The notes: generated by a model from the sequence alone, not told the origin. A stretch of DNA of 64,000 nt from an uncultured Bacilli bacterium (GCA_934183155.1 CAKPSB010000007.1:5768-69767), one strand, 5' to 3'. Shown: positions 2,583-32,403, numbered from the stretch's first letter. Made by a program: numbers and translations.

Positions 2583-3923
2583 CTATTTAATTTGGTTAAT
2601 TATTTTTGAAATTTCGACTTCTAAGTTTTTATCCTTTTTTAATTCACTTTTTATTTTAGCAACAGAATGCATAACAGTTGTATGATCTTTTCCACCAAAT
2701 TCACTACCTATTTTAGGTAATGATTCTTTTAGATGTACTCGGCATATATACATTCCAATTTGTCTTGGTACGGCTATTTTTGATAGTCTTTTTTTAGATT
2801 TTATATCTTCTACGGTTATATTGTAATTATTGGCTACTAATTGGATTACTTGGTCTATTTTATTTCTTGAAATGATATTTTTACCGATGTAATCTTTTAG
2901 AGCTTCTATAGCTAATTCTAAGGTAATTTCTGAGCCATTCATTATTGTAGCGTAAGCAAATACGCGGGTTAGAGCACCTTCTAGTTTTCTGATATCGGTG
3001 GTGCAATTATTGGCTATGTATTCTTTTACTTCCATAGGAACAAAGCTACTGATATTATGGGCTTCTATTTTTTTATCTAGTATAGCTAGTCTAAGATCTA
3101 ACTCTGGTGGCAGAATGTCAATGGTTAAGCCCCAATTAAATCTGGTTCTTAATCTATCTTCAAGTTTTTTTAAATCATCTGGTGAACGATCGGATGATAT
3201 AATTATTTGTTTATTTTTTGTGTGTAATTCATTAAATGTGTTGAAAAATTCCTGTTGTGTTTTACTAGCTATTTCTAAATATTGAATATCATCTATCATT
3301 AGTACATCAATGTCGCGATATTTTCTTTTGAAGTTATCGACAGCTTTAAAATTACTTGTTTCGTTTTTTCTATATATATTAAGAAAATCATCAACAAATT
3401 TTTCACTTGTTACATATAGTACTTTTTTGTTAGAAGTTGAAACAATATAATTTCCAATAGCGTGCATTAAGTGTGTTTTTCCAAGTCCGCTTGATCCATA
3501 GATGAATAATGGATTATACATAGCACCTGGTTTTTCAGCAACAGCAAGACCTATGGCTTTGGCGAATTTGTTTGATTCTCCGGCAATAAAATTGTCAAAA
3601 GTATATTTGCTATCAAGGCCACTTTCAAAGACAGCTTCATTATTTTCTGTTGTTTCTGTTTTAATTTCGTCTGATGCTTCATTTGGCGTAACGTATTTAA
3701 ACTTAAAAATAGAGCCAGTTACTTCCATAAATGTTTCTTTAATTATTTCACCATAGTTTTCTTGTAGATGCTTTTTGTGAACATCAAGTGGAACTTCTAT
3801 AATGGCATATTCATTGTTTAAATCGATTAATTTTGTTTCTTTAAACCATGTTTGAAATAAAACTGGTTTTAATTTTAGTTCAATTTTTGATAAAAAAACA
3901 GCCCACATGCTTTCTAAATCCAT
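2583..3923 (-). CDS. dnaA: Chromosomal replication initiator DnaA
   Basis: 446 aa. AAA+ Walker A GSSGLGKTHLMHAIGN, box VII, and C-terminal DNA-binding signature GGKDHTTVMHSVAKI. Confidence 0.97.
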   Translation of the reverse strand: MDLESMWAVFLSKIELKLKPVLFQTWFKETKLIDLNNEYAIIEVPLDVHKKHLQENYGEIIKETFMEVTGSIFKFKYVTPNEASDEIKTETTENNEAVFESGLDSKYTFDNFIAGESNKFAKAIGLAVAEKPGAMYNPLFIYGSSGLGKTHLMHAIGNYIVSTSNKKVLYVTSEKFVDDFLNIYRKNETSNFKAVDNFKRKYRDIDVLMIDDIQYLEIASKTQQEFFNTFNELHTKNKQIIISSDRSPDDLKKLEDRLRTRFNWGLTIDILPPELDLRLAILDKKIEAHNISSFVPMEVKEYIANNCTTDIRKLEGALTRVFAYATIMNGSEITLELAIEALKDYIGKNIISRNKIDQVIQLVANNYNITVEDIKSKKRLSKIAVPRQIGMYICRVHLKESLPKIGSEFGGKDHTTVMHSVAKIKSELKKDKNLEVEISKIINQIK

Positions 3924-3998
3924 ACTATTCCCCCCATTGTGCTTTTATAAACACTCAATAACATTTTACATTATTTTTACATTTTTTTCTATAAAAAC

Positions 3999-4222
3999 TG
4001 TGGAAAAATAGCAAAAAAGTTTTAAACAAGAAATTATTGTCGAAATATGAAGGCTTTAGAGTTATTTCCACATCATGTGTGGATAAATATTTTTGCACAA
4101 ATGTGGACAATTATTTTTTTTGCACAACTGTTGAAAAGTAATTTTAATACATTTTTACAAATATTTTTTTTGTGTGGAAAACTCAAAAAAAGAAAAATGA
4201 AAAAAATTATACTGTGGAAAAC
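3999..4222. promoter_or_regulatory. oriC DnaA-box cluster between divergent dnaA and rpmH
   Basis: TGTGGAAAA 3999-4007, perfect TGTGGATAA 4078-4086, TGTGGACAA 4102-4110, TGTGGAAAA 4173-4181 and 4214-4222, in an AT-rich spacer. Gene orientation switches here. Confidence 0.8.
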
Positions 4223-8476: not shown

Positions 8477-8559
8477 ATTTATTTCTACTTTTATTTTTTG
8501 GTTTCTTTTTAATTGTTAAAAAAAATGTTATAATAATTGCTGGAAATGTTGGTGATTTT

Positions 8560-10413
8560 ATGGAATATGAAATTATTGTTGTTGGTGGTGGTCATGCTGG
8601 GTGTGAAGCAGCTTTGGCTAGTGCTAGAATGGGTCATAAAACGTTACTTGTTACGGGAAATATTAATAATGTAGCTGATATGCCTTGTAATCCATCAATT
8701 GGAGGAAGTGCAAAAGGTATTGTTGTTCGTGAGATAGATGCTTTAGGTGGACAGATGGGAAAGAATGCTGATAGGAGCTTATTACAAATAAAAATGCTTA
8801 ATACAGCTAAAGGTCCTGCTGTTAGAGCATTGAGAGCACAGGCTGATAAAATAACTTATCCTAAAAATATGCTTGATACGCTTATTGAAACTAAAGATTT
8901 AGATATTAAAGAGGCATTAGTTAAGGATGTTATTACTGTTAATAATAAGGCTACTGGTATTTTACTTGAAAATGGTATTACGATTAAATCTAAGGCTGTT
9001 ATTTTAACGACAGGTACTTATATGAATGCAGATATTTTAGTTGGTAATACTCGTCATCGAGAAGGTCCGCATGGTGAAAAACCGTCTAATTATTTAAGTG
9101 ATAATTTGGCAAAAAAAGGTTTTAAAATTATTAGATTAAAAACAGGAACACCACCTAGAATTGAAAGAAGTAGTATTGATTTCAGTAAAACGAAAATTGA
9201 AAATGGGGATAATGTTTATAGAACTTTTTCTTTTGATGATAAACCTTGTTATGATATTGATAGTCAAGTTCCATGTCATTTAATTTATACTAATGAAAAT
9301 ACACATAAATTAATTTTAGACAATTTAAATAAGTCTAGTATGTATGGTGGTTTATCTGATATTAAAGGTGTTGGCCCTAGGTATTGTCCTTCTATTGAAG
9401 ATAAAGTTGTTAGATTTAAAGATAAAGATAGACATCAGTTATTTTTAGAGCCTGAAAGTTTATATTATGATGATATTTATTTGCAAGGATTTTCGACAAG
9501 TATGCCTCATGATATTCAAGAAAAAATGGTTCATAGTTTATCTGGTCTTGAGCATGCTAAAATATTGAGGTATGCTTATGCTATTGAATATGATGCAATT
9601 TATCCTACACAATTAAAATTTAATTTGGAAACTAAGTTAATTGAAAATTTGTTTACAGGTGGGCAAATTAATGGTACAAGTGGTTATGAAGAGGCTGCTT
9701 GCCAAGGTTTAATGGCGGGTATTAATGCGGCTTTGAAAATTGAAGGAAAAGAACCTTTTATTTTAAGAAGAGATGAGGCTTATATTGGTGTTTTAATTGA
9801 TGATTTGATTACTAAAGGCATTAGTGATCCTTATAGATTACTTACATCAAGAGCTGAGTATAGGTTGCTTTTGAGAAGTGATAATGCTGATTTGAGATTA
9901 CGTGAATATGGACATAAATTTGGATTAGTTAGTGATGATAAATATGATGAATTTTTGAAGAAAAAAGAAGATATTGATAATGCTATATTGGAATTTAAAA
10001 AAGTTAGAGTAACGCCTAAAGATAATGAATTATTAAATAGCATTGGAACTAAAAGTTTAAATTCTGGTATTTCTTTATATGATTTGCTCAAGAGACCGGA
10101 AATTGATGTGGAAAGTCTTATTAGATTTTTAAATAATGATTATTCTTTTGAGGTTTTAGAACAAGTTAGTATTACAGCTAAGTATGAAGGTTATATTAAA
10201 AAAGCAATGCATGAGGCTGAAAAATTAAAACATTTAGAAAGCAAAAAAATTCCTGTTGATATTGATTATGATTCAATGCATAATTTAGCTAGTGAAGCTA
10301 AGCAAAAGTTGAAAGAGGTAAAGCCTCTTACTTTAGGGCAGGCTATTAGAATTAGTGGTGTAAATCCTGCTGATATTTCTATTTTATCGATGTATTTGAA
10401 AAGGGGTAAATAA
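8560..10413 (+). CDS. mnmG: tRNA uridine 5-carboxymethylaminomethyl modification enzyme MnmG (GidA)
   Basis: MEYEIIVVGGGHAGCEAALASARMG FAD motif at the ATG at 8560. The track start at 8461 adds a non-homologous hydrophobic extension. Confidence 0.95.
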   Translation: MEYEIIVVGGGHAGCEAALASARMGHKTLLVTGNINNVADMPCNPSIGGSAKGIVVREIDALGGQMGKNADRSLLQIKMLNTAKGPAVRALRAQADKITYPKNMLDTLIETKDLDIKEALVKDVITVNNKATGILLENGITIKSKAVILTTGTYMNADILVGNTRHREGPHGEKPSNYLSDNLAKKGFKIIRLKTGTPPRIERSSIDFSKTKIENGDNVYRTFSFDDKPCYDIDSQVPCHLIYTNENTHKLILDNLNKSSMYGGLSDIKGVGPRYCPSIEDKVVRFKDKDRHQLFLEPESLYYDDIYLQGFSTSMPHDIQEKMVHSLSGLEHAKILRYAYAIEYDAIYPTQLKFNLETKLIENLFTGGQINGTSGYEEAACQGLMAGINAALKIEGKEPFILRRDEAYIGVLIDDLITKGISDPYRLLTSRAEYRLLLRSDNADLRLREYGHKFGLVSDDKYDEFLKKKEDIDNAILEFKKVRVTPKDNELLNSIGTKSLNSGISLYDLLKRPEIDVESLIRFLNNDYSFEVLEQVSITAKYEGYIKKAMHEAEKLKHLESKKIPVDIDYDSMHNLASEAKQKLKEVKPLTLGQAIRISGVNPADISILSMYLKRGK

Positions 10414-11280: not shown

Positions 11281-12963
11281 GTGCAAGAAAATGGAAAACT
11301 TACTGTTTTAAGCATGCAAGATATTTTGCCAAATAGATTTCAGCCAAGATTTAAATTTGATGAAGAAAAATTAGAAGAACTTGCTTTATCTATTAGTAAA
11401 TATGGTGTTATTCAACCAATTGTTGTAAGACCAGTTAGTAATAAATATGAAATTATTGCTGGTGAACGTAGGTTTAAAGCCAGTAAACTTGCAAATAGAT
11501 CTACTATTCCTGCTATTGTAATTAATTTATCTGATAAAGATAGTGAAGAGATTGCTTTACTTGAAAATGTACAAAGACAACAATTAAATCCAATTGAAGA
11601 AGCCGTTTCATATAAACGGATTTTAGACATGGGATATATTACGCAAGAAGAACTTGCTAAAAAAATTGGAACATCTCAATTGGCAATTGTGAATAAAATA
11701 AAACTTTTAAGTTTGAGTGATGAGGTTCAAAGTTATTTGTTAAATAATAAGATTTCTGAAAGGCATGCAAGAAGTTTACTTAGAGTTACTGATAAAGAAA
11801 TGCAAGTTCAATTGCTTTACCGAATTGTTAAAGAAAGACTTACCGTTAAACAAACAGATAAAGAAATTGCTAAAATTAAAGAAAATGAAAATAAATTTGA
11901 AATGTCAAAACAAAATATTAATTCTAATCAAGAGGTTAAAAAAATAGTTGAACCGATTGAAACAGAGTCAATTGAAAGTTTATTTGATGAAAGCGAAAAT
12001 TTAGAAAGGGGTAATCATATGGATATTGATAAGATTATGCGTGAGGCAAAAGATATAAATGTTCCAACGAAAGAAGAACCAAAAGATATTTCTAATCTTA
12101 TGGTATCAGGCGTGGATGTACAAAGTGAACCTATTGTTAGACAGGAATCTGCTTCGGCACCTCTTGAACCAGGAAAGTTTATTAATGTTCAACCTCAAGC
12201 ACAAGTTCAGGAAAAGCCAATAAGCCCAGTTCAAACTGACAGCGTAACTTTTGATAGTGTATTTAATCAGGGGTTAATGGATACTCCAAATAAAACTGTT
12301 TCTCAGCCTATAAACGATTCGCAAAATAATGTTAATTCTCAAACTTTTGTGAAGCCTCAAGCTTCTATTAATTCGTCAGCTTCTTCTGATTTAAGTTCAA
12401 AGGCCGAACCTCAACATAATACTTTTATAAATAGTAATTTGCAAAATAATTCATCAGTTTCTGATTCAGTTGTACAAGCAGGGCCAAGTGTTCCTAATGT
12501 TTCAGATTCAGTGGAAATTTCAGATGATACAAAAAATAAAATATCAAATGCTGTTGCTATGGCGTTGAAAGGATATAATAGTAGAAAATCTGGTATTGGA
12601 CAAGCTTCTACTGCAGCTGATAAATCTGTTCAGAGTAATGTTTCAAGTAATTTTAATGCGCAGCCTCAAGGTGTACCAGCAAAGCCAGTAATGCCTCAAA
12701 CTAATAATATACCAGATGTCGATATTATTTCAGATAATAATATTAATGATTATATTGCTCCAACACCTACTGGTGATAGTACAATAGCGGCTTCAATGAG
12801 TCAAAGCATAAAGCCTGTTAATAATCATGCCCATTTTGCTCAAATTGTTAAAATGCTTAGAGATTGTGCAGACAAAATTGAACAAGAAGGATATTTTGTT
12901 AATGTTGATGAAATGGATTTAAATGATAAATATAAGGTAATATTTACGATAAATAAAGAATAA
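11281..12963 (+). CDS. ParB/Noc/Spo0J-family protein with a very long low-complexity C-terminal extension
   Basis: The N-terminal ~200 aa carry ParB motifs (ILPNRFQPRFKFDEE, YEIIAGERRFKAS, LENVQRQQLNPIEEA, HTH, ISERHARSLL). About 300 aa rich in Q/S/N/P/V follow, then a ~45-aa structured-looking tail. GTG start after a GGGGAGGGG RBS. Confidence 0.85.
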   Translation: MQENGKLTVLSMQDILPNRFQPRFKFDEEKLEELALSISKYGVIQPIVVRPVSNKYEIIAGERRFKASKLANRSTIPAIVINLSDKDSEEIALLENVQRQQLNPIEEAVSYKRILDMGYITQEELAKKIGTSQLAIVNKIKLLSLSDEVQSYLLNNKISERHARSLLRVTDKEMQVQLLYRIVKERLTVKQTDKEIAKIKENENKFEMSKQNINSNQEVKKIVEPIETESIESLFDESENLERGNHMDIDKIMREAKDINVPTKEEPKDISNLMVSGVDVQSEPIVRQESASAPLEPGKFINVQPQAQVQEKPISPVQTDSVTFDSVFNQGLMDTPNKTVSQPINDSQNNVNSQTFVKPQASINSSASSDLSSKAEPQHNTFINSNLQNNSSVSDSVVQAGPSVPNVSDSVEISDDTKNKISNAVAMALKGYNSRKSGIGQASTAADKSVQSNVSSNFNAQPQGVPAKPVMPQTNNIPDVDIISDNNINDYIAPTPTGDSTIAASMSQSIKPVNNHAHFAQIVKMLRDCADKIEQEGYFVNVDEMDLNDKYKVIFTINKE

Positions 12964-16436: not shown

Positions 16437-16889
16437 ATGTTTAAACTTATTAATAAAGCTGGTGTTGGTGTATTTGATTTAGAAAATAAAATTGCGGATG
16501 TTGCTGTTGATTATTGGGTTGATGCTATTAATAAAGCTGGTGATTTAAATAATTCTGATTTTTTACAGATAGCGGATGTTTTATCAAATGAACATATTAC
16601 TTTATCTGACAAGTCTCTTTTGAAATTTAAGTGTTTTATGAAAAAAAATATTATTTCAAAATTTCCTAAAAAAAATGATTATATGATGATTTGGACTGGT
16701 GACGGTAGAGAAATGAATGATGGAACAAGATTGATTGGTGATTTTGGTATTATTAATTGTTCTAAAAAAGCGAACATTCCTTTAGAGTCATTACCTAAGG
16801 ATATTTGTATGTGGATAAGACCTGATAGTGTTTCAGTAGAAAACTGTTTTCAATTTGATGAAATATATAGAAAAAGTAAAATTAAATAA
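16437..16889 (+). CDS. Hypothetical protein (no recognisable family)
   Basis: 150-aa ORF with its own consensus promoter, RBS and terminator. No motif recognised. Confidence 0.6.
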   Translation: MFKLINKAGVGVFDLENKIADVAVDYWVDAINKAGDLNNSDFLQIADVLSNEHITLSDKSLLKFKCFMKKNIISKFPKKNDYMMIWTGDGREMNDGTRLIGDFGIINCSKKANIPLESLPKDICMWIRPDSVSVENCFQFDEIYRKSKIK

Positions 16890-16925: not shown

Positions 16926-17017
16926 ATTGTATATTAATGTTAATATGTAATAAATTGGTTATAATATTATTTGAAGATTTTAATTATGATGATTGAAATT
17001 ATAATATTGAGGTTATT

Positions 17018-17330
17018 ATGTTTAAATTATAATCAAAATATAAGCCTGTGGAGATCAACTGCGAGCAATTAAAAAATTGTCTGATGGAATTAAGAAATAT
17101 AAAAAATAATAAGATTTATAGGGTATATGCTTTTTTCAATACTGAAGTGTTACACGTTAAAGTTAAATTAGCACGATATAAATTTGTGGAAGAAGTATAA
17201 TAATGATGGTATAATTTATTTTGTAGGTCATCTTTATAACTAATTTATGTAAATGAAGTTGATGGAATATCAAAAGATTATATAGAAGATGATGAAAAAG
17301 CGACTTATTTTGAAGTGGTTGATAGTGCAT
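17018..17330 (+). pseudogene. Heavily decayed remnant of a uvrB 5' region
   Basis: ATGTTTAAATTATAATCAAAATATAAGCCT-GTGGAGATCAAC.. aligns with the intact uvrB start ATGTTTAATTTAATGTCAAAATATATACCTAGTGGTGATCAAC.. It has a 1-nt deletion and a TAA at codon 5. The shifted frame reads GDQLRAIKKLSDGIKK (UvrB GDQP.AI..L..GI..G). The upstream TGAGGTTATT resembles the uvrB RBS region. Later colinear anchors are TATTTTGT (17217) and Y-I-E-D-D (17279). The extent beyond ~17100 is uncertain. Confidence 0.5.
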
Positions 17331-17432
17331 GATGTACAAAAGATAAAGTGTGCTAGAGATAAGTTTATAAATACAGTAATGAACACTGAATTTTAAGGTA
17401 AAAAGAAATATTTTTATGGAGTTGATAAATAT

Positions 17433-17951
17433 ATGAATAATAATGAAGTTTTAGCAAGAAATTATTCTGAAGGAAGTGTTGAATTATATAATTGTTTATT
17501 AGAACTATGGAAAAATGATTTTGAAACAATTGGATGCTGTATAGGACATAATGGCAATACTCAATATATAGGATTAAATAGAAATAATAATGATAAACTT
17601 ATAAAGTTTTTATCTTTGATTAATAAGGATGATATTGTTATTTCTTTTCTTAATAATCATATTAGTATTAAGAAGAATAAAAACAAAGATATATATAATA
17701 GTGTATTAAATTCTATAAAAAAACTAAATGAAAATGATATTGCTTCCAAGGATAAAGAAATAGAAGACGTAATTAATTTTATTGATAATAATAATTACAA
17801 ATATGCTAATATTCGCTATTATTATTATAAAGGTACATTAAAAAAATATATTAATACAAGTGATTTAGATTTAATAAATATTCTAAAAGGAAAATATAAG
17901 TATAAAGTATTAAATGAAAAATTGCCAATGTATCATTTTATAATAGATTAG
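17433..17951 (+). CDS. Hypothetical protein (no recognisable family)
   Basis: 172-aa Asn/Lys-rich ORF with a GGAG RBS, located between two uvrB 5' fragments. Confidence 0.5.
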   Translation: MNNNEVLARNYSEGSVELYNCLLELWKNDFETIGCCIGHNGNTQYIGLNRNNNDKLIKFLSLINKDDIVISFLNNHISIKKNKNKDIYNSVLNSIKKLNENDIASKDKEIEDVINFIDNNNYKYANIRYYYYKGTLKKYINTSDLDLINILKGKYKYKVLNEKLPMYHFIID

Positions 17952-18078
17952 TGGTAAATTTATGAATTCAAAAGAAAATTATAATTGTAGATTTATACCA
18001 AAAAGTGATTTTAATTTATAGTTATATTTTTAAAAATCTTAAAAAAATAACAAAAAGTTATAAAGGAGGGAGGAAAAA

Positions 18079-18387
18079 ATGTTCAAAATTCACTCAAAAT
18101 ATATGCCTAGTGGTGATCAACCGGAGGCAATAAATTCATTAGTTAAAGGAATTAAAAATGGTGAGAAGTATCAAGTTTTACTTGGAGCAACGGGGACTGG
18201 AAAAACTTTTACAATTGCAAACGTAATTGAAAAAGTGAATAAACCAACATTGCTACTTGCACATAATAAAACTTTAGCTGGGCAACTTTATGCAGAGCTT
18301 AAAGAGTTGTTTCCAGAGAATCATGTATGCTATTTTGTTTCTTATTATAGGAACGCCTCTAAAACTGCTTTATTTAATACCTTTTAG
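18079..18387 (+). pseudogene. Truncated duplicate of the uvrB 5' end (codons 1-90, then 12 unrelated codons and a stop)
   Basis: 18079-18348 aligns without gaps to uvrB 21297-21566 (about 90% identity by hand count, last ~70 nt identical). The translation carries the UvrB N-terminus with Walker [10 protein letters not shown]. Homology stops abruptly after ..VSYY. Confidence 0.9.
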
Positions 18388-18491
18388 TTTTATTTAACCC
18401 CTTAAAAATATCATAAAAAGCCTAAATAAGACTAGTTAATAAAATGTAATTTTGTGGCTGAAATTTGTATCCATTCGTGTCCACTAAAAAA
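18383..18491 (+). repeat. Left copy of the imperfect direct repeat flanking the cassette
   Basis: TTTAGTTTTATTTA (18383-18396), a ~54-nt insert, then TTTGTGGCTGAAATTTGTATCCATTCGTGTCCACTAAAAAA (18451-18491). Compare 21148-21208. Confidence 0.7.
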
Positions 18492-18555
18492 TTAATAAAT
18501 ATCAAGATAATATAATTTATAAATTAATGTTTTTAGATAAAAAGTCATATTTTAA

Positions 18556-18564
18556 TGTTATAAT
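18556..18564 (+). promoter_or_regulatory. Extended -10 element upstream of the cassette
   Basis: TGtTATAAT 27 nt upstream of the GAGGTGA RBS and the ATG at 18592. No good -35 seen. Confidence 0.45.
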
Positions 18565-18591
18565 ATAAATGTATATGTGAGGTGATAGGGT

Positions 18592-19179
18592 ATGTTAGTT
18601 ATTTTTGAAGGATTAGACAATTGCGGTAAAACTACATTAGTACAAATGATAAAAGATTATTATTTAAAATTAGGAATAGATGCAGAAATTTCTAAAGAAT
18701 TTGAAACTAATATAGGTAAGGAATTAAAGAAAATGGCAAAAGAAGGAACTTTAGATCCTATCTTAAAAGCATATCTGTTTGCAACTGATAGATATATAAG
18801 AATGAAAAATATAGATCAAGAAGATTTAAAAAATAAAATAATGTTATTTGATCGATACGTTCCGTCTGCTCTTGCTTATCGTATGGCGGAAGGTGTTGAT
18901 AAAAATTGGGTAACTAATATAAATTCAGTTTTTCCAAAAGCTGATATAGGATTTTTTATTGATATAACGCCAAATGAATCTGTTAACAGAAATACAGATG
19001 CCAAATTTAATATAAAAGCAACACCTGAGCATTTAGGAAAAGTTAGAAGTGCATATTTGTCTATTCTTGATGAAAATAATCTTATTTATATTAATGGAAT
19101 GCAACCGATTGAAAATATATTTGGTGAAGTTATTGATAAAATAGAGGAGTTTAGAAAAAAGAATGAGAGAAAATTTTAA
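18592..19179 (+). CDS. Thymidylate kinase-family (dNMP kinase-like) protein
   Basis: 195 aa. P-loop VIFEGLDNCGKTT, DRY motif LFDRYVPSALAY, Tmk-like length and LID region (NESVNRNTD). Confidence 0.75.
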   Translation: MLVIFEGLDNCGKTTLVQMIKDYYLKLGIDAEISKEFETNIGKELKKMAKEGTLDPILKAYLFATDRYIRMKNIDQEDLKNKIMLFDRYVPSALAYRMAEGVDKNWVTNINSVFPKADIGFFIDITPNESVNRNTDAKFNIKATPEHLGKVRSAYLSILDENNLIYINGMQPIENIFGEVIDKIEEFRKKNERKF

Positions 19180-19795
19180 TAATCTATTAGAAAATTTAAA
19201 AAAGTGTGAAATTTGTAAAGAAAAATTTGGATTTCAGCCTCATCCTATATTTTTAGGTAATGTTAATTCTAAAATAGTTCAAATTAGTCAGGCACCATCT
19301 GCCACTGTCCATGAGACATTAAAACCATTTACAGATCAAAGTGGAAAAAAATTAAAATATGAGTGGTATAAGATTGATGATGAAACATTTTACAATCCAG
19401 ATAATTTTTATATTGCAGCGCTTGCACATTGTTATCCTGGAAAAGATAAAAATGGTAACGATAGAATGCCACCAAAGGTTTGTTATGAAACTTGGATAAA
19501 AGAAGAACTAAAATATATAAACAATAAACTTTATATAATAATTGGTGCAAAAGCAGCAAGAGTTTTTTTTCCAAATGAAAAATTTAATGAATTGATTTTC
19601 AAAAATAATTTTATTAATGAAAAATTAGCAATTGTATTACCACATCCATCACCACTTAATATAAAGTGGTTTAAAGAGCATCCCGAATTTATGAAAAAAA
19701 GAATATTTGAAATAAGAAAAATAATAAATGAAGTATTGGAGGAAGAAAAAAATGATAGATTTGAAACAAATACAAAAAGATGTTTATCAAAATAA
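19163..19795 (+). CDS. Uracil-DNA glycosylase superfamily protein (probable 4Fe-4S type, atypical motif A)
   Basis: 210 aa. KIVQISQAPS (motif A position), KPFTDQSGKKL, LPHPSPLN (motif B). Cys15-x2-Cys18 plus Cys90 and Cys107, as in family 4/5 Fe-S UDGs. Start overlaps the upstream stop by 17 nt. Confidence 0.7.
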   Translation: MRENFNNLLENLKKCEICKEKFGFQPHPIFLGNVNSKIVQISQAPSATVHETLKPFTDQSGKKLKYEWYKIDDETFYNPDNFYIAALAHCYPGKDKNGNDRMPPKVCYETWIKEELKYINNKLYIIIGAKAARVFFPNEKFNELIFKNNFINEKLAIVLPHPSPLNIKWFKEHPEFMKKRIFEIRKIINEVLEEEKNDRFETNTKRCLSK

Positions 19796-20066
19796 GTTGG
19801 ATAAAGGTTTTAATGTTACAGATATTAATAAAGAGTTTTGTTTAACATATGGTGAAGTAGCTGAGGCATATGAAGCGTGGCGTAAGAAAAAAGATGATGT
19901 TGGAGAAGAAATAGCTGATGTTGTGATTTATCTACTAGGATTATCTGAGATTTTAAATGTTGATTTGGAAAGTGAAATTTTAAGGAAAATTAATAAAAAT
20001 AAACACAGAGAGTACAAAATAATTGACGGTGTAAATACAAGAGTTAAAGAATATGAAGAAAATTAA
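19752..20066 (+). CDS. MazG-like nucleotide pyrophosphohydrolase (small all-alpha NTP-PPase)
   Basis: 104 aa from the ATG at 19752 (GGAGGAAG RBS 19738-19745). E-x2-E ... E-E-x2-D metal motif (GEVAEAYEAW..VGEEIADVVIYLL). The track start at 19728 is less likely. Confidence 0.7.
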   Translation: MIDLKQIQKDVYQNKLDKGFNVTDINKEFCLTYGEVAEAYEAWRKKKDDVGEEIADVVIYLLGLSEILNVDLESEILRKINKNKHREYKIIDGVNTRVKEYEEN

Positions 20067-20994
20067 TATATATTTGGCTACAAAATTATATAGTTTTTTT
20101 GATAGAAAAACATCTGTAATTATGTATAATAGCATTTTAAATAGTAAAAAATTCAGAAACGATAAGATATATTTACCATTTAAGGATAGTAATATGAAGG
20201 TTAGTACAGACGGAAATGTTGCTAAAAATATATTTGAAGCAGATATAAATTCGTTAAATAATACTGATATATTTATAACAAGACTTGACGGAATGTCTTA
20301 TGATGCAGGTGTTGGATTTGAAATTGGATACTGTTTAGCTAAAAGTGTTCCTCTTTATATTTTTAATACTGATTTCTATAAAAATAAATTATTAAGTAAC
20401 TTTGAATATAAGTTATCACCTATAATTGATAAAATTGCCAATGTATTTAAATATGAATATATAAATGATAGTAAATTGGAATATGAGGATGAATTGGATT
20501 TTAATATTAATTTGTTTTCTAAATTTGTCTATGAAAAAATAAACAATACAAAAGAAAAAATATATGAATATACTGATGGCAATGAGAAATTTGACGTTTT
20601 TATAGATTTATTAGGTATGAAATATGAATGGAATAAAATAATAATTGATAAAATAACTAAAATATTAGATGAAAATAGTATTACGTATTGGATTAGTAAT
20701 AGATATTCATCAGGATATTCAGTTGATGTTGATTTGAAAAATTTAAAAAATAGTAAGATTTATTTAACATGTTATGATGAAAATGAACCAGATATAGATT
20801 CTGCTATTTTACAAGGATTTGCTTATTATAATAAATTAAATATTATTGGATATGAATCAAATCCTGTTAAATATTATGTTGAAGGAAAGCAAGAATTTGG
20901 TGTTACATTAATGTTAGAGCAGTCATGTTCTACATTAACAAAAAGTATAGATAAGAGTATAAAAGTGATAATCAATAATATAAAGCATAATTGA
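20053..20994 (+). CDS. Tandem nucleoside 2-deoxyribosyltransferase / DNPH1(Rcl)-fold protein
   Basis: 313 aa. The N-terminal half has IYLATKLYSF..IFEADINSL..DIFITRLDG..YDAGVGFEIGYCLA (NDT signature with nucleophile Glu). The C-terminal half repeats the pattern (FIDLLG..IYLTCYDENEPDIDSAILQGFAYY) with Gln in place of Glu. Confidence 0.65.
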   Translation: MKKINIYLATKLYSFFDRKTSVIMYNSILNSKKFRNDKIYLPFKDSNMKVSTDGNVAKNIFEADINSLNNTDIFITRLDGMSYDAGVGFEIGYCLAKSVPLYIFNTDFYKNKLLSNFEYKLSPIIDKIANVFKYEYINDSKLEYEDELDFNINLFSKFVYEKINNTKEKIYEYTDGNEKFDVFIDLLGMKYEWNKIIIDKITKILDENSITYWISNRYSSGYSVDVDLKNLKNSKIYLTCYDENEPDIDSAILQGFAYYNKLNIIGYESNPVKYYVEGKQEFGVTLMLEQSCSTLTKSIDKSIKVIINNIKHN

Positions 20995-21015
20995 TACCAT
21001 AATGGTATCTATTTT
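20993..21015 (+). terminator. Intrinsic terminator of the cassette
   Basis: GATACCA (20993-20999) pairs with TGGTATC (21003-21009), followed by TATTTT. Overlaps the stop codon. Confidence 0.55.
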
Positions 21016-21147
21016 AATGTAATTTAAATATTTTAGAAGAAGATAAAAGAATTTAAATTATGAAAATATTTAGAATGAACCTTGATAATTGAAATGGCTT
21101 CATTGTTTTATTGTAAAATAAGTGTTAAAATAGGTTATTAGAAAACA

Positions 21148-21208
21148 TTTAGTTTTATTTAGTAAATTTGTGGCTGACATGTGTGCCCTATGCGTGTCTA
21201 CAAAAAAA
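21148..21208 (+). repeat. Right copy of the imperfect direct repeat flanking the cassette
   Basis: TTTAGTTTTATTTAGTAAATTTGTGGCTGACATGTGTGCCCTATGCGTGTCTACAAAAAAA. The core matches 18451-18491 at about 34 of 42 positions (hand alignment). Confidence 0.7.
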
Positions 21209-21296
21209 TGACCTATCAGTTAAGTTCTAGGCCATGAATTTTTGCTGATTGGACATGAATTTGTTGGTTGATATTGGTCATGATAAGGAGGTAGTT

Positions 21297-23246
21297 ATGT
21301 TTAATTTAATGTCAAAATATATACCTAGTGGTGATCAACCAGAGGCAATAAATTCATTAGTTAAAGGAATTGGAAATGGTGAGAAGTATCAAGTTTTACT
21401 TGGAGCAACGGGGACTGGAAAAACTTTTACAATTGCAAATGTAATAGCTCAAGTTAATAAACCAACTCTAGTTTTAGCTCATAATAAAACCTTAGCAGGG
21501 CAACTTTATGCAGAGCTTAAAGAGTTGTTTCCAGAGAATCATGTATGCTATTTTGTTTCTTATTATGATTATTATCAACCAGAGGCTTATGTAGCTAAAA
21601 CAGATACTTATATTGAAAAGGATGCTTCTATTAATGATGAAATAGATGAGCTTAGACATTATGCAACGGCTAGTTTATTAGCACATAAAGATGTTATTGT
21701 TGTCGCTTCTGTTTCTTGTATTTATGGTATTGGTGAAATTGAGGATTATGAGAAAAAAGTATTGTTTTTAAGCGTTGGTGAAACGGTAGATAGAGATAAA
21801 ATTATTGAAAAATTAATTGATATGCTTTATGAAAGAAATGATATTGATTTAAAAAGAGGCTCTTTTAGGGTTAGAGGCGATGTTTTAGAAGTTGTTCCGA
21901 TAGGTCAGCACACACATGGAATTAGAGTTGAATTTTTTGGTGATGAAATTGATAGAATAAGTGAATTTGATTTAGTTACAGGGAGTTTGGTTAATGATAA
22001 AAAAACTTATACTTTGTTTCCGGCAAGTCATTTTGTTACGAGTGAGGATAAGCTTAAAATTGCTATTAAAAATATTAGAAGTGAACTTGATGAACAACTT
22101 AAAAAATTTAAAAGTGAAAATAAATTACTTGAGTATCAAAGATTGAAAGAAAGAGTTAATTATGATTTAGAGATGCTTGAAGAAACTGGCTTTTGTAGAG
22201 GTGTTGAAAATTATTCAGCGCCGCTTGCTTTGAGAAAACCTGGAGATATGCCAACTACGTTAATTGATTTTTTTGGTGATGATTTTTTGTTAGTAGTTGA
22301 TGAATCACATGTTACTTTACCACAGGTTAAAGCGATGTATAATGGTGACAGAGTTCGTAAAGAGTCGCTGGTTAATTATGGCTTTAGGCTTCCGAGTGCA
22401 CTTGATAATAGACCTTTAAAATTTAATGAATTTGAAAGTAAAATTAGACAAGCTATTTTTGTTTCGGCTACTCCTGGTGATTATGAACTTGAAAAATGTC
22501 ATCATAAGTATGTTTCACAAATTATTAGACCAACTGGGTTGCTTGATCCGGTTATTACAGTTAAATCAACAAAAGGTCAAATTGATGATTTAGTTAGTGA
22601 AATTAATAAACAAATTAATAATAATGAAAGAACATTGATTACTACTTTAACTATTAGAATGGCTGAGGAATTGTCTGGTTATTTAAAAAAACTTGATATT
22701 AAAGTGGCTTATCTTCATAATGAAGTTAAAACTTTAGAAAGAATGCAGATAATTCATGATTTAAGATGTGGTAAATATGATGTGGTTGTTGGTATTAATT
22801 TGTTACGTGAAGGTATTGATATTCCTGAAGTTAGTTTAATTGCTATTATGGATGCTGATAAGCAAGGATTTTTACGTAGTGAAAGGAGTTTATTACAGAC
22901 CATTGGTAGAGCTGCTCGTAATGCTAATGGTAGAGTTATTATGTACGCTGATGGTATGAGTCAGGCGATGAATGTGGCTATAAGTGAGACTAATCGTAGA
23001 AGAAGTATACAAATGGCTTATAATGAGAAAAATGGAATTGTTCCTAAAACAATTGTTAAAGAAATAAGAGATGTAATTTCTAATAAGTTTGAGATTAAAG
23101 ATAAAAACAAGAAGCTTTCTAAAAAAGATAAGGAAAGTTTAATGTCTGATTTAGAAAGAGAAATGAAATTAGCTGCTAAGAATCTTGATTTTGAAAGAGC
23201 TATGGAACTTAGAGATGCTTTATTTGAGTTGCAAAGTGAAGACTAG
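21297..23246 (+). CDS. uvrB: Excinuclease ABC subunit B
   Basis: AAGGAGG RBS, then the ATG at 21297 (the track start at 21249 adds 16 aa). [26 protein letters not shown], helicase motifs, C-terminal UVR domain ([16 protein letters not shown]). Confidence 0.97.
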
Positions 23247-30175: not shown

Positions 30176-31645
30176 ATGAAGAAAATTTCAATATATTTGA
30201 TGATTGCAATTGTCTTTTTGGGTTTATTTACTTTAGGTTTTGGTTATAAAAATTCACCAGAACCTAATAATTATTATGAGGTATATCTTAATGATGAATT
30301 ACTCGGTGTTATAAAAAATGAAAAAACTTTAGAGAGTTATATTGATAAAAATGGTGATTATTATAAGCAAAAATATAAGGTAAATAAAGTTTTTTCTCCT
30401 AAGGGTCTTCATGTCAGAAAACTTACAACATATAATGGTAAAACCTCTTCGGTTAGTTCTATTTATAATAAAATAGCAAAAAAAGAGGATTTTACAATTC
30501 GAGGATATGAGTTTATTATTAAAAGGCAGAATGATGATAAGGTTGAAACTCAAAACATTTATGTTTTAGATAAAAAAATATTTAAAAAAGCAATTGAAAC
30601 ATTAATTGATACATTTGTTGGTAAAGATCAATATAAAGCTTATATTGATGATACACAAGTTAAAATTACTTCAACTGGTGAAAATATTCAAAATGTGTAT
30701 ATTGATGATGATATAACTGTACGTGAAACTAATATTTCTGTTAATGAGAAGATATATATGGATGATTCTTCTTTGGCTCATTTTCTTTTGTATGGAGATA
30801 ATGCAGTTTCATCTGAATATGAAGTCAAAGCAGGGGATACTATTGAAAATGTTGCTTTTAATAACAAAATAAGTCCAGAGGAGGTTTTGATTTCTAATCC
30901 AAGTCTTACTAGTACAAATAATTTACTTTATCCTGGTCAGAAACTTAAAATTATTGAAACTAATCCTCAAATTAATGTTGTTGAAGAGTCATATGTAGTT
31001 AAAGATGTTGAAAGTCAATATAAAACTGAGGAAAGATATGATAATAATGCTGTTATTGGTCAAGATAAGGTAGTTCAAGAAGGTGTGAATGGTCTTGAGC
31101 GAGTATCTCAAAAAGTAAAAAAAGTTAATGGAAATATTAATTATGTTGATCCTCAAGGTAAACAGGTTATAAAGGAACCTATAAATAAAGTTGTTATAAA
31201 AGGTAATAAATATGTTCCGACTGTTGGTAGTATGACTGGATGGGGATGGCCTACTGATAGTGGTTGGACTATGAGTAGTGGTTATTCTTATCGTTCTAGT
31301 CCGTTTGGCAAAGGTCGTGAGTTACATACTGGTTTAGATATTTCTGGTACAGGATATGGTTCTAAGATATATGCAACAAACAATGGTGTGGTTGAAATTG
31401 CTGAATATCATTATAGTTATGGTAATCATGTTGTTATTAACCATAATAATGGTTATATGACTTTATATGGTCACATGAGTAAAATAGCTGTTAAAAAAGG
31501 ACAAACGGTTGCTAAAGGACAAGTTATTGGTTATGTCGGTATGACTGGGTCTGCTACTGGTCCACATGTTCATTATGAAGTTTGGAAAGGATGCAAATAT
31601 TGTCATGTTAATCCATCTGTTTTGTATCCTAATGGATATCGTTAA
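30176..31645 (+). CDS. Membrane-anchored LysM/G5-like/M23 peptidoglycan endopeptidase
   Basis: Signal anchor MKKISIYLMIAIVFLG. LysM (YEVKAGDTIENVA..LYPGQKLKI). M23 motifs HTGLDI, YGNHVVINHNNGYMTLYGH, TGPHVHYEV. Confidence 0.85.
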   Translation: MKKISIYLMIAIVFLGLFTLGFGYKNSPEPNNYYEVYLNDELLGVIKNEKTLESYIDKNGDYYKQKYKVNKVFSPKGLHVRKLTTYNGKTSSVSSIYNKIAKKEDFTIRGYEFIIKRQNDDKVETQNIYVLDKKIFKKAIETLIDTFVGKDQYKAYIDDTQVKITSTGENIQNVYIDDDITVRETNISVNEKIYMDDSSLAHFLLYGDNAVSSEYEVKAGDTIENVAFNNKISPEEVLISNPSLTSTNNLLYPGQKLKIIETNPQINVVEESYVVKDVESQYKTEERYDNNAVIGQDKVVQEGVNGLERVSQKVKKVNGNINYVDPQGKQVIKEPINKVVIKGNKYVPTVGSMTGWGWPTDSGWTMSSGYSYRSSPFGKGRELHTGLDISGTGYGSKIYATNNGVVEIAEYHYSYGNHVVINHNNGYMTLYGHMSKIAVKKGQTVAKGQVIGYVGMTGSATGPHVHYEVWKGCKYCHVNPSVLYPNGYR

Positions 31646-32403
31646 TGAAAGTTTGTATTTTAGCTAGTGGCAGTAAGGGTAATTGTGCTTATATTGAAAC
31701 TGATAAAACAAGGTCTCTTGTTGATTTGGGAATGAGTGCAAGTTATATTAGTAAGTCTTTGAAGAACATAGGGGTTGACCCTTTTTCTATTCAAAGGGTA
31801 TTTATTACTCATACACATAGTGATCATGTGGCTGGTCTTAAAGTTTTTATTAAGAAATATCATCCTATTATTTATTTAACTGAGAAGATGGATAATGAGC
31901 TTGATTTTGATATTGAAGATAAGGTTTACATTGATAAAACAACAGTTATTGATGATTTAATGGTTGATGTTTTTAAAACTTCACATGATGTGGCTGATAG
32001 TAATGGCTATGTTTTTGAAAGTAATGGTAAAAGTGTTGTATATGTTACAGATACAGGATATATTCATGTTAAAAATTTTAATAAATTACGTAATAAAAAC
32101 ATGTATGTTTTTGAAAGTAATCATGATGTAAGAATGCTTAAAGAAGGAAGGTATCCATATCATTTGCAGCAAAGAATTTTAGGCGACAAGGGACATTTGT
32201 CTAATAAGGATAGTGCTTATTATTTATCAAAGTTAATTGGGGATAAAACAAAAAAGATTATTTTAATCCATTTAAGTGAAGAAAATAATAAACCAGAAAT
32301 TGCTTTAAAAACATTATTAGATACTTTGAACAAAAATGATTTGCCAATACCAGACATTGAGATTGCTTGTCAGAAAGAAAGTACGGAGCTTGAGGTTTTA
32401 TGA
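31645..32403 (+). CDS. MBL-fold metallo-hydrolase (WalJ/YycJ-like)
   Basis: LASGSKGNC, ITHTHSDHVAG. Position upstream of rlmH, as yycJ in Bacillus. Confidence 0.8.
   Translation: MKVCILASGSKGNCAYIETDKTRSLVDLGMSASYISKSLKNIGVDPFSIQRVFITHTHSDHVAGLKVFIKKYHPIIYLTEKMDNELDFDIEDKVYIDKTTVIDDLMVDVFKTSHDVADSNGYVFESNGKSVVYVTDTGYIHVKNFNKLRNKNMYVFESNHDVRMLKEGRYPYHLQQRILGDKGHLSNKDSAYYLSKLIGDKTKKIILIHLSEENNKPEIALKTLLDTLNKNDLPIPDIEIACQKESTELEVL

Follow-up and report, generated by a model that had tools for sequence, protein, structure and literature searches.

Tandem cassettes at codon 90 of uvrB in an uncultured Bacilli bacterium suggest accretion of recombinase-less mobile elements

Three copies of the uvrB 5' end

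How did an intact uvrB gene come to lie downstream of two further copies of its own 5' end, each followed by other genes? The locus belongs to a 64-kb stretch of DNA from an uncultured Bacilli bacterium (the window), and its three copies share one orientation within 4.5 kb. From the sequence comparisons below, we consider it likely that the locus is a tandem array to which elements were added site-specifically, at an attachment point within uvrB. Its features, with the evidence in parentheses, are as follows.

16982..17105, + strand: copy 3, decayed uvrB 5' remnant, probably the oldest (blastn, shuffles, L099 match)
17106..18078, + strand: body of putative cassette E1, with orphan gene and right end; left end eroded
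17433-17951, + strand: orphan gene in E1, 172 aa (no family match)
about 18018-18078, + strand: E1 right end with GGAGGGAGG ribosome-binding site (likeness to the right end of the L094 element)
18079..18348, + strand: copy 2, intact in-frame uvrB codons 1-90 (243/270 nt, 90%, identical to 21297-21566)
18331..18357, + strand: left-junction core, TATTTTGTTTCTTATTAT / AGGAACGCC (alignments with other elements)
18446..18492, + strand: motif M, left copy, ~12-nt tandem units with GTGGCTGAAATTTGT (81% identical to 21162-21209)
18551..21081, + strand: cargo module of putative cassette E2, four-gene operon (Pfam, NCBIfam; terminator)
18592-19179, + strand: dTMP kinase (Pfam/NCBIfam)
19163-19795, + strand: UDG-superfamily protein (Pfam/NCBIfam)
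19752-20066, + strand: MazG-like protein (Pfam/NCBIfam)
20053-20994, + strand: nucleoside 2-deoxyribosyltransferase-like protein (Pfam/NCBIfam)
20993-21009, + strand: terminator of the E2 operon
21010..21296, + strand: E2 right end, probably an element-supplied uvrB upstream region (terminator position; L111 identity)
21162..21209, + strand: motif M, right copy (GTGGCTGACATGTGT), 127 nt upstream of the uvrB ATG
21297..21566, + strand: current uvrB 5' module, codons 1-90, apparently delivered by E2 (window vs. sister strain L094)
21549-21566, + strand: attachment core TATTTTGTTTCTTATTAT closing the current uvrB 5' module
21567..23246, + strand: resident host part of uvrB, codon 91 to stop (UvrB domains; sister-strain identity)

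The intact gene starts at 21297, as originally predicted: this ATG is preceded by AAGGAGG, is the start chosen by gene callers in public assemblies, and opens a 649-aa product in which a Pfam search finds the full UvrB domain set. The gapless match of copy 2 to the current 5' end, estimated beforehand at about 90%, is equally clear in blastn (92.2% over 18094-18348, E = 8e-106) and tblastn (91% over residues 1-90), and copy 2 has a ResIII Pfam match too. It has, as proposed, its own ribosome-binding site and an abrupt end: homology to uvrB stops exactly after codon 90, and the ORF runs for 12 more codons to a stop at 18387. The mosaic of differences was also recovered, with changes concentrated at nt 6-15, 27-77 and 144-201.

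A third, decayed copy had been claimed to reach about 17300. The copy is real, shows the single-nucleotide deletion and, at codon 5, the TAA attributed to it, and comprises ~37 nt of upstream region plus codons 1 to ~28. By blastn, 16982-17059 is 74.7% identical to 21258-21339 over 83 nt (3 gaps, E = 1e-8); the local alignment score is 52, against 18.7 ± 2.5 (maximum 31) in 1000 shuffles; and 17012-17119 also finds a match, 75% over 110 nt (E = 1e-11), in the uvrB 5' end of L099, a relative. However, the copy can be shown only as far as ~17105: beyond this there is no significant similarity to uvrB, and the weaker colinear anchors suggested at 17217 and 17279 fell away (tblastn E = 0.9-3.4). 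Cassette E1 most likely displaced an original host 5' end, of which copy 3 is the remnant. About 20 independent metagenome contigs show the arrangement of the window, which is therefore not an assembly artefact.

Two cassettes with different cargo

Together with its uvrB module, the older cassette (E1) extends over about 17106-18348, and its cargo is the one orphan gene, whose product has no match in Pfam, NCBIfam or PADLOC. The E1 right end is nearly identical in alignment to that of the L094 element; by blastn, the whole span 18018-18348 is 74.9% identical to L094 7786-8116. The right attachment site is intact, while the left one is decayed and not demonstrable; no significant resemblance links the E1 left end to those of other elements, so that family membership of this end cannot be demonstrated. 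Copy 2 is the 5' end brought in by E1 and later displaced by E2.

The younger cassette (E2) spans 18349-21566 and carries a nucleotide-metabolism operon. Since this operon closes with a terminator, the uvrB promoter must lie in 21010..21296. A LexA-box-like sequence is present in the uvrB promoter of some elements. Both E2 attachment sites are kept: core, left end and motif at 18331-18492, and motif, uvrB 5' module and core at 21162-21566. The gene content of E1 and E2 includes no integrase, excisionase, conjugation or mobilisation genes (Pfam/NCBIfam), and ORF content and tblastn with the family integrase revealed no recombinase in 16982-21566. The original prediction had seen no integrase in the window, and tblastn with the L059 integrase (see below) found no relative of it in the 64 kb; the window's own species, covered here by those 64 kb, has thus yielded no integrase of the family.

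The E2 module is 88-90% identical in L103, L105 and L110, in differing contexts, and the E2 right end with the uvrB 5' region is 85% identical to L111. In L105, a distantly related host whose proteins are just 39-60% identical to those of the window, the E2 body is 88% identical and the cassette lies in physical linkage with a fragment of uvrB codons 1-90, the kind of arrangement for which a search had been suggested. The L105 copy is pseudogenised and lacks motif M, and the E2 copies in L105 and L111 are decayed. Between hosts, the uvrB 5' modules that accompany E2 share only about 78% identity, which implies either that the module is overwritten quickly by conversion or that the model is incomplete.

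Strain comparisons and gene conversion

A search of close relatives for other cargo at this junction had been proposed, and in sister strain L094 the same junction and motif enclose a different cargo, of 7.6 kb. Window and L094 uvrB are 74.8% identical over nt 1-270 and 99.7% identical over nt 271-600, and the host part of the gene (21567..23246) is 97.9-100% identical to sister strains. The L094 cargo, this break at nt 270 and the cassette linkage in L105 uphold the proposal that integration recurred at a single site in the 5' region of uvrB, each event supplying a replacement 5' end and upstream region. The expected polymorphism among relatives is thus seen in L094, but not among contigs with the window's exact flanking proteins (19-23 per look-up), all of which have the same arrangement, contig breaks aside, so that current mobility in the window strain is unproven; neither an excised E2 circle nor an empty site was seen.

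A one-gene, 1.45-kb leucine-rich-repeat (LRR) cassette, unrelated to E2, is 90-98% identical between L033 and L076 over most of its length, although their uvrB flanks are only about 50-85% identical. The E2 and LRR cassettes appear to have spread horizontally between distantly related hosts with the same junction. L001 shares 99.86% identity with the window across 11 kb, and its intact uvrB agrees with copy 2 at 16/16 variable sites in nt 144-201, where the window uvrB differs. This is a between-strain gene-conversion tract that copied the displaced fragment into the live uvrB, and ectopic gene conversion between the repeats is the better explanation for the mosaic pattern of copy 2 and uvrB.

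A common junction and a flanking motif

The attachment-site core inside uvrB, TAYTTTGTNTCNTANTAY, covers codons 85-91 and encodes the highly conserved YFVSYY motif. At the left junction, uvrB homology ends at 18348, and the first bases of the E2 left end are a degenerate copy of uvrB to the right of the crossover; copy 2 and the sequence after it would be the attL (left attachment site) of E2. The junction TAYTTTGTNTCNTA, followed by a related left end, is common to L033, L076, L092, L094 and L105. Fragments of uvrB (residues 1/2 to 88-90) lie upstream of an intact uvrB in L033 (Acutalibacteraceae), L076 (Clostridia), L092 and L105; the L094 fragment is cut by the contig start and has the same 3' end point. 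A family of integrative elements thus occupies uvrB codon 90 and is widespread in gut Firmicutes.

The left copy of motif M lies 106 nt after the E2 left junction. The motif GTGRCYNNNATTYGT occurs 101-114 nt past the junction in 5/6 elements, and motif M 111-151 nt before the uvrB ATG in 9/12, integrase-bearing ones included; the window cassettes have the junction and flanking 15-nt motif of the integrase-bearing elements without the integrase. Present on both sides of the core, GTGRCYNNNATTYGT is a candidate arm-type binding site of the integrase. For the right-hand motif M a role as promoter or operator is also conceivable, since the motif precedes cargo genes and uvrB at promoter-like distances as well; at ~400 nt from the core, it is far for an arm site.

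Integrase-bearing relatives

A tyrosine integrase of 428-430 aa is encoded immediately upstream of uvrB in 9/9 loci examined (L059, L089-L093 and L113-L115). The L059 integrase (430 aa) has Phage_integrase and SAM-like domains, with an Arm-DNA-bind_4 match of 21.3 bits, just below the Pfam cutoff of 22.3; its homologues P0007, P0015 and P0095 (83%, 77% and 66% identity, respectively) are each directly upstream of uvrB. Where neighbouring genes were inspected, in L089-L092 and L113-L115, the integrase is accompanied by a further tyrosine recombinase, an excisionase-like HTH_17 protein or a relaxase/NikA pair, and the two tyrosine recombinase genes are adjacent. In this gene content, full-size members are built like integrative and mobilizable elements (IMEs).

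L089 and L092 are identical at 11864/11868 nt through the integrase and uvrB nt 1-270, and part at TTTGT[G/C]TCCTA[C/G]TAC, from which one contig runs on into the rest of uvrB while the other enters the left end of a different element. TTTGTNTCCTANTAC marks this switch of partner at codon 90, which takes place within about 10 nt. This integrase family is a strong candidate for the missing recombinase of the window cassettes.

Proposed mechanism and alternatives

The comparisons show that an element's right end carries an upstream region of its own plus uvrB codons 1-90, so that insertion rebuilds a complete uvrB and shifts the previous 5' end leftwards, where the conserved element left end follows it. 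In the window, two integrase-less members are stacked in order of arrival, first E1 and then E2, and the 270-bp direct repeats exchange sequence by gene conversion after insertion, giving the mosaic and chimeric UvrB N-termini. As for the mobilising function, which the original prediction took to be lost, supplied in trans or homologous recombination, the tyrosine-integrase family probably acted in trans, or the cassettes were left by decay. In the first case the integrase would have come from a co-resident element or through tandem co-transfer; in the second, E1 and E2 would be deletion derivatives of integrase-bearing ancestors.

Alternatively, the integrase-less units (1.2-7.6 kb) might be specialised hitchhikers like integron cassettes or ccr-less staphylococcal cassette chromosome (SCC) elements, kept minimal rather than decayed. 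An integrase encoded in the chromosome or on an element would then move them as a matter of routine, and uvrB would be the platform for such cassettes. Five different integrase-less cassettes at the site speak for this (E1, E2, the L094 element, the LRR cassette of L033/L076 and the decayed E2 of L105/L111), two of the five occurring in distantly related hosts with the same boundaries, and in the small sample examined they are about as frequent as integrase-bearing members. We nevertheless regard a dedicated system as rather unlikely: no cognate integrase was located in any cassette-bearing genome fragment, the pseudogenised, motif-less L105 copy looks like decay, and co-transfer in cis with a larger element accounts for the spread equally well.

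Much less credible is homology-facilitated uptake, in which foreign DNA acquired by natural transformation recombined homologously with the uvrB 5' region at one side and was closed by an illegitimate joint at the other, an option that the original prediction had left standing as one-sided anchoring. The conversion tracts do testify to homologous exchange on the 270-bp repeats, and each carrier's uvrB 5' module is mostly of host type. Yet the codon-90 end point, left-end sequence and flanking motif are conserved across distantly related hosts, a dedicated integrase family occupies the same site with a partner switch within ~10 nt, and illegitimate joints would not repeat at one nucleotide. Least plausible of all is that the uvrB 5' region was duplicated locally in tandem and diverged without any mobile element, the unrelated genes being later insertions. 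This would fit three same-orientation copies so close together but is contradicted by the identity step at nt 270 between sister strains, by the same cassette beside uvrB fragments in hosts with such divergent proteins, and by the near identity of the copy 2 upstream region to another element's right end.

Relation to known mobile elements

Cis-mobilizable elements (CIMEs) have lost their integration and transfer genes and kept both attachment sites (PMC5704250). Tandem accretion of ICEs/IMEs is known, e.g., of ICESt1/ICESt3-related elements at fda in Streptococcus thermophilus, where the newest element abuts the intact gene, and the window arrangement fits the three-step scheme of that work (PMC5704250). 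E1 and E2 lack integration and mobilisation genes, keep attL and attR (both in E2, only the right one in E1), and have an attachment site in common with the integrase-encoding L059, L089-L093 and L113-L115. By these features they appear CIME-like, a known kind of element with a target that we did not find described in the literature searched: the ICE/IME papers retrieved do not mention uvrB in their texts, and publications matching the integration and insertion phrases searched for uvrB included none on a natural element. An autonomous ICE or IME would have its own recombinase, which E1 and E2 lack, although target-derived direct repeats do flank E2 (18079-18348 and 21297-21566). In contrast to accretion at fda, the target is the 5' rather than the 3' end of the gene, and the direct repeat takes in ~270 bp of the coding sequence together with the upstream region that replaces the old one, compared with 12-54 bp in streptococcal ICEs. 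Several uvrB cassettes are also very small (1.2-3.2 kb), and two occur in distantly related hosts, which is indirect evidence that a helper element could mobilise them.

Streptococcal ICEs target the 5' end of ftsK, rbgA or ebfC via a tyrosine integrase and may replace the upstream region and promoter of the target gene; the protein N-terminus is unchanged, with repeats that overlap the start region (PMC4701971). The uvrB elements resemble them in using a tyrosine integrase at the 5' end of a conserved housekeeping gene and in replacing its upstream region, but the uvrB crossover lies 270 nt inside the ORF, so that 90 codons are swapped and a chimeric UvrB results.

Other likenesses are analogies only. 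SCC and pseudo-SCC cassettes stack in tandem at rlmH (orfX) in staphylococci, some without a recombinase and served in trans; these resemble the uvrB cassettes as tandem cassettes at one conserved-gene site, some recombinase-less, and differ from them in their serine recombinases, 3'-end target and short repeats. Integron cassettes are likewise small recombinase-less units of one to a few genes, placed serially by an integrase encoded elsewhere. However, no IntI was found: integron-integrase models gave 22-42 bits against cutoffs of 265-435 on the second recombinase of L089 and no match on the L059-type integrase. The uvrB integrases have an N-terminal SAM-like and a borderline arm-binding domain, their site is a coding-sequence core with direct-repeat motifs, and each unit brings a gene fragment. 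Tn554-like elements, with adjacent TnpA and TnpB tyrosine recombinases plus TnpC, use one chromosomal site without target duplication; the two adjacent recombinase genes of the integrase-bearing uvrB relatives make them a lead only.

Implications

A broader reading, which we offer as speculation, is that uvrB codon 90 serves gut Firmicutes as a cassette platform. If so, a module of two recombinases acting in trans would carry minimal cassettes without a recombinase between hosts that are only distantly related. With each insertion UvrB would receive new residues 1-90, Walker A region included, and its gene a new promoter. The LexA-box-like promoters of some elements would couple expression of the element and of the host's uvrB to DNA damage, and the stacked 5' fragments would remain as a store on which gene conversion could draw to diversify an essential component of nucleotide excision repair.

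The uvrB 5' end as a reused insertion site

The AT-rich window comes from an uncultured human-gut bacterium; the nearest GTDB species representatives, uncultured Erysipelotrichaceae/Bacilli MAGs, share only 68-72% UvrB identity with it. Sequence comparisons show an insertion site inside uvrB, its reuse and a uvrB 5' module that the elements themselves carry; they also show an integrase family linked to the site, polymorphism between sister strains, and distantly related hosts that have integrase-less cassettes in common. The relevant features of the window are as follows.

~16982-17105, copy 3, displaced uvrB 5' fragment
~17106-18348, E1, older cassette with one orphan gene
18079-18348, copy 2, displaced uvrB 5' fragment
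18349-21566, E2, newer cassette with a four-gene operon
18446-18492, motif M, left copy, 106 nt past the copy 2 junction
18551-21081, operon (dTMP-kinase, UDG-superfamily, MazG-like and double deoxyribosyltransferase-like genes)
21162-21209, motif M, right copy, 127 nt 5' of the uvrB ATG and 81% identical to the left copy
21297, ATG of uvrB, encoding a 649-aa protein with the complete UvrB domain set

Copy 2 is, as originally predicted, a truncated duplicate of the uvrB 5' end. It aligns without gaps to 21297-21566 (243 of 270 nt identical; blastn E = 8e-106), has its own GGAGGGAGG ribosome-binding site, and its homology to uvrB ends exactly past codon 90. The E2-type 5' module at 21297-21566 has a TTTAATTTAATG variant at nt 6-15. 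The third copy is also real but shorter than proposed: 16982-17059 aligns to 21258-21339 with 74.7% identity (E = 1e-8) and a local score of 52, against 18.7 ± 2.5 for 1000 shuffles, and 17012-17119 also matches the uvrB 5' end of a relative (E = 1e-11). Its supposed extension to ~17300 through colinear anchors, TATTTTGT at 17217 and YIEDD at 17279, was dropped, as neither is significant (tblastn E = 0.9-3.4). The same arrangement occurs in ~20 independent metagenome contigs.

Copy 2 lies in an intact 102-aa ORF (18079-18387) with a strong ribosome-binding site and a retained Walker A motif (GATGTGKT), and may yield a truncated N-terminal UvrB peptide. Public contigs of the species (L002, L004, L005, L006 and L007) end within or beside the 270-bp repeat, a sign of ambiguous assembly and perhaps also of strain heterogeneity left unresolved at the uvrB locus. 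Between dxs and copy 3, a 150-aa ORF (16437-16889) has no family hit and was not found in the fetched loci L094-L098 (sister strain) and L099-L102 (relatives with 88% identical UvrB); it could be host DNA or the remnant of a still older cassette. Downstream, a conserved 252-aa metallo-beta-lactamase-fold gene (31645-32403) has an Anti-Pycsar_Apyc1 Pfam hit in public gene tables, and is probably a housekeeping gene because it is also present in the syntenic downstream block of L094.

Cassette ends

E2 is flanked by a second repeat that the original prediction did not list, the ~45-nt motif M, built of tandem ~12-nt units with the core GTGRCYNNNATTYGT. Those of the 80 GTDB loci and of L099-L102 that have no insertion signatures lack motif M 5' of uvrB, which rules it out as a native uvrB regulatory site and makes it part of the inserted DNA; we infer that it would serve as an integrase arm site. 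Every element left end opens with a degenerate version of what uvrB has on the right-hand side of the core (WTAYRAnn versus TTATGATT), as expected for core-type binding sites. Rfam gave no match at E ≤ 1 for the intergenic element ends. A putative E1 left end with motif remnants at 17110-17200 looked plausible in a MAFFT alignment, yet local scores fall inside the shuffle range. The sequence 5' of copy 2 differs very little from the right end of the sister-strain element (L094), so the E1 right end belongs to the uvrB-element family, although the left end is eroded. There is a terminator at 20993-21009, and uvrB therefore now relies on a promoter within the E2 right end; no LexA-box-like sequence lies upstream of uvrB in the window.

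Polymorphism and crossover point

Different cargo at this junction, which the original prediction proposed to look for in relatives, is found in the sister strain (P0121; loci L094, L096 and L098), whose UvrB is 96% identical overall and whose 7.6-kb insert is without an integrase. Its layout in L094 is as follows.

123-266, uvrB fragment
~362, left motif M, GTGRC core 105 nt past the junction
cargo: ParA-like fragment, 787-aa protein, DUF5305 protein, S26 peptidase and YitT-like gene
~7690, right motif M, core 151 nt before the ATG
7847, uvrB start

Identity between the uvrB genes of L094 and the window rises from 74.8% in nt 1-270 to 99.7% in nt 271-600, and is 97.9% further on; this step at codon 90 is the clearest single proof of an imported 5' module. 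Relatives with 88% identical UvrB (L099-L102) have no fragment and no motif M within 10 kb; the closest GTDB relatives (L009-L012; UvrB 68-72% identical) have no fragment or cargo and are too distant to provide a clean empty site.

The crossover is delimited by L089 and L092, two uvrB loci that share one integrase-bearing element, match at 11864 of 11868 nt up to uvrB nt 270, and part ways at TTTGT[G/C]TCCTA[C/G]TAC. After this core L089 continues into uvrB, and L092 into the left end of another element, with motif M 114 nt further. Two of the four mismatches are within the core, where strand exchange would leave differences.

The same junction in other bacteria

Of the 80 uvrB loci scanned in GTDB species representatives, those of two MAGs of Clostridia, L033 (Acutalibacteraceae) and L076, have a uvrB fragment ending ..EYFVS, i.e., at codon 90, followed by the conserved left end, motif M, a 289-aa leucine-rich-repeat gene, motif M and a new uvrB start. 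This 1.45-kb cassette is 90-98% identical between the two over most of its length, versus only ~50-85% for their uvrB flanks. Within each genome, fragment and live gene differ mainly in the first ~10 codons and are nearly identical in the middle of the repeat, with further differences in L076 in the last 40 nt ahead of the junction; such a pattern would be expected for an element-borne 5' copy partly homogenised with the host copy.

Gene conversion is also visible in the window's own species. L001 has the window's arrangement (99.86% identical over 11 kb). At each of the 16 variable sites in nt 144-201, its live uvrB agrees with copy 2 and not with the uvrB of the window. The mosaic pattern noted earlier between copy 2 and uvrB is thus accounted for by ectopic conversion, still ongoing, of the live gene and the displaced fragment; this process also explains the tendency of 5' modules to resemble host sequence in each carrier.

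The four-gene cargo

A metagenome scan with the deoxyribosyltransferase-like protein recovered the operon in ten loci. The cassette is physically linked to a uvrB 5' mimic in L105, where the operon lies between a codon 1-90 fragment (3902-4171) and intact uvrB (7078), behind the same left-end sequence as in E2. Host proteins of L105 and the window are only 39-60% identical, versus 80-97% for cargo proteins, and the cassette body has 88% DNA identity to E2. The L105 copy is decaying, since two genes are frameshifted and motif M is lost. A variant with deletions adjoins uvrB in L111, and the operon or variants, some without the UDG gene, also occur in L104, L106-L108 and L112. At L103 (4500-7027) and L110 (1502-3528) the operon is ~90% identical to that of the window and sits among IS3-type transposase genes, not near uvrB; the cargo is therefore a separate module taken up by the uvrB-targeting backbone. 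Nucleotide-pool sanitation or phage defence are guesses as to its role; PADLOC matches were weak and confined to the kinase, and assignment to a defence system was rejected.

In L103, two rpiB (LacAB_rpiB) ORFs with identical Pfam scores (2277-2720 and 8508-8951) bracket the operon and an IS3-type transposase, which suggests another insertion duplicating a flanking gene, or an assembly repeat.

A uvrB-linked integrase family

A motif M match 134 nt 5' of uvrB in locus L059 led to a 430-aa ORF ending ~270 nt before uvrB, with Phage_integrase and N-terminal SAM-like domains and an arm-binding-domain match of 21.3 bits, just below the 22.3-bit Pfam cutoff. The family comprises 1236 proteins at E ≤ 1e-20, and every member whose context was examined, L059 and the following three, lies directly 5' of uvrB.

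P0007, 83% identical to the L059 integrase, loci L089-L092
P0015, 77% identical, locus L093
P0095, 66% identical, loci L113-L115

A second tyrosine recombinase occurs near the integrase in L089-L092 and L113-L115 (full length at 395-399 aa, but in L115 reduced to a 155-aa remnant). An HTH_17 protein is encoded in most of this group, and a relaxase together with a NikA-like protein in L089-L092 and L115; the L093 neighbourhood has only a 227-aa recombinase remnant. Such a gene make-up is that of integrative and mobilizable elements (IMEs). Adjacent recombinase genes of 395-399 and then 428-430 aa (L089-L092, 8812-11293; L113-L114, 6800-9287), preceded by a small ORF with an HTH_17 match in L113/L114, resemble in layout two-recombinase transposons of the Tn554 type. 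The fetched flanks did not extend to the left ends of the integrase-bearing elements. Most of their right ends have motif M 123-128 nt before uvrB, and a LexA-box-like GAACnnnnGTTY lies 249-285 nt before uvrB (L059, ~1372; L089, ~11315; L093, ~4253; L113/L115, ~9318). The box is within the upstream region that the element supplies, so that an SOS-type operator would arrive together with the new start of uvrB.

A prophage origin was rejected: IMG/VR yielded no integrase relative, which argues against prophages, and no E2 junction. Matches of the 90-aa fragment in phage and plasmid records (tblastn) were mostly to entries annotated with complete uvrB, or unannotated.

Mechanism and implications

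The uvrB-linked tyrosine integrase family would catalyse insertion, and the window cassettes would have been mobilised in trans, or carried in cis by a helper, and not stranded by deletion. Because E2 has kept both its ends intact and copy 2 still provides an open 5' end in frame, E2 excision would restore a functional uvrB; E1 is locked in, since copy 3 is broken. Streptococcal ICEs and IMEs are known to integrate, decay to cis-mobilizable elements (CIMEs) and receive new elements at an attachment site holding a gene end (PMC5704250); here, by contrast, the target is uvrB and minimal cassettes are unusually prominent. At ftsK, rbgA and ebfC, integration is known to occur at the 5' end of the gene, involving 12-54-bp repeats and leaving the protein N-terminus unchanged (PMC4701971), whereas the uvrB crossover is deep in the ORF and exchanges 90 codons. 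Full-text literature searches returned no paper naming uvrB as an ICE, IME or prophage target, nor did the papers searched describe an attachment site 270 nt inside a core DNA-repair gene with its integrase family.

The promoter and first 90 codons of uvrB thus effectively behave as mobile DNA, open to exchange, in many gut Firmicutes. As practical consequences, sequences from the uvrB 5' end are unreliable for strain typing or phylogeny in the Firmicutes concerned, assemblies break at the repeat (L002, L004-L007), and short 'ResIII/helicase' ORFs 5' of uvrB are markers of cassettes. The four-gene nucleotide-metabolism cargo is a portable module in its own right, and the locus is a small natural model in which to study how integrase-less cassettes are mobilised in trans and how a pseudogene fragment and the live copy undergo gene conversion.
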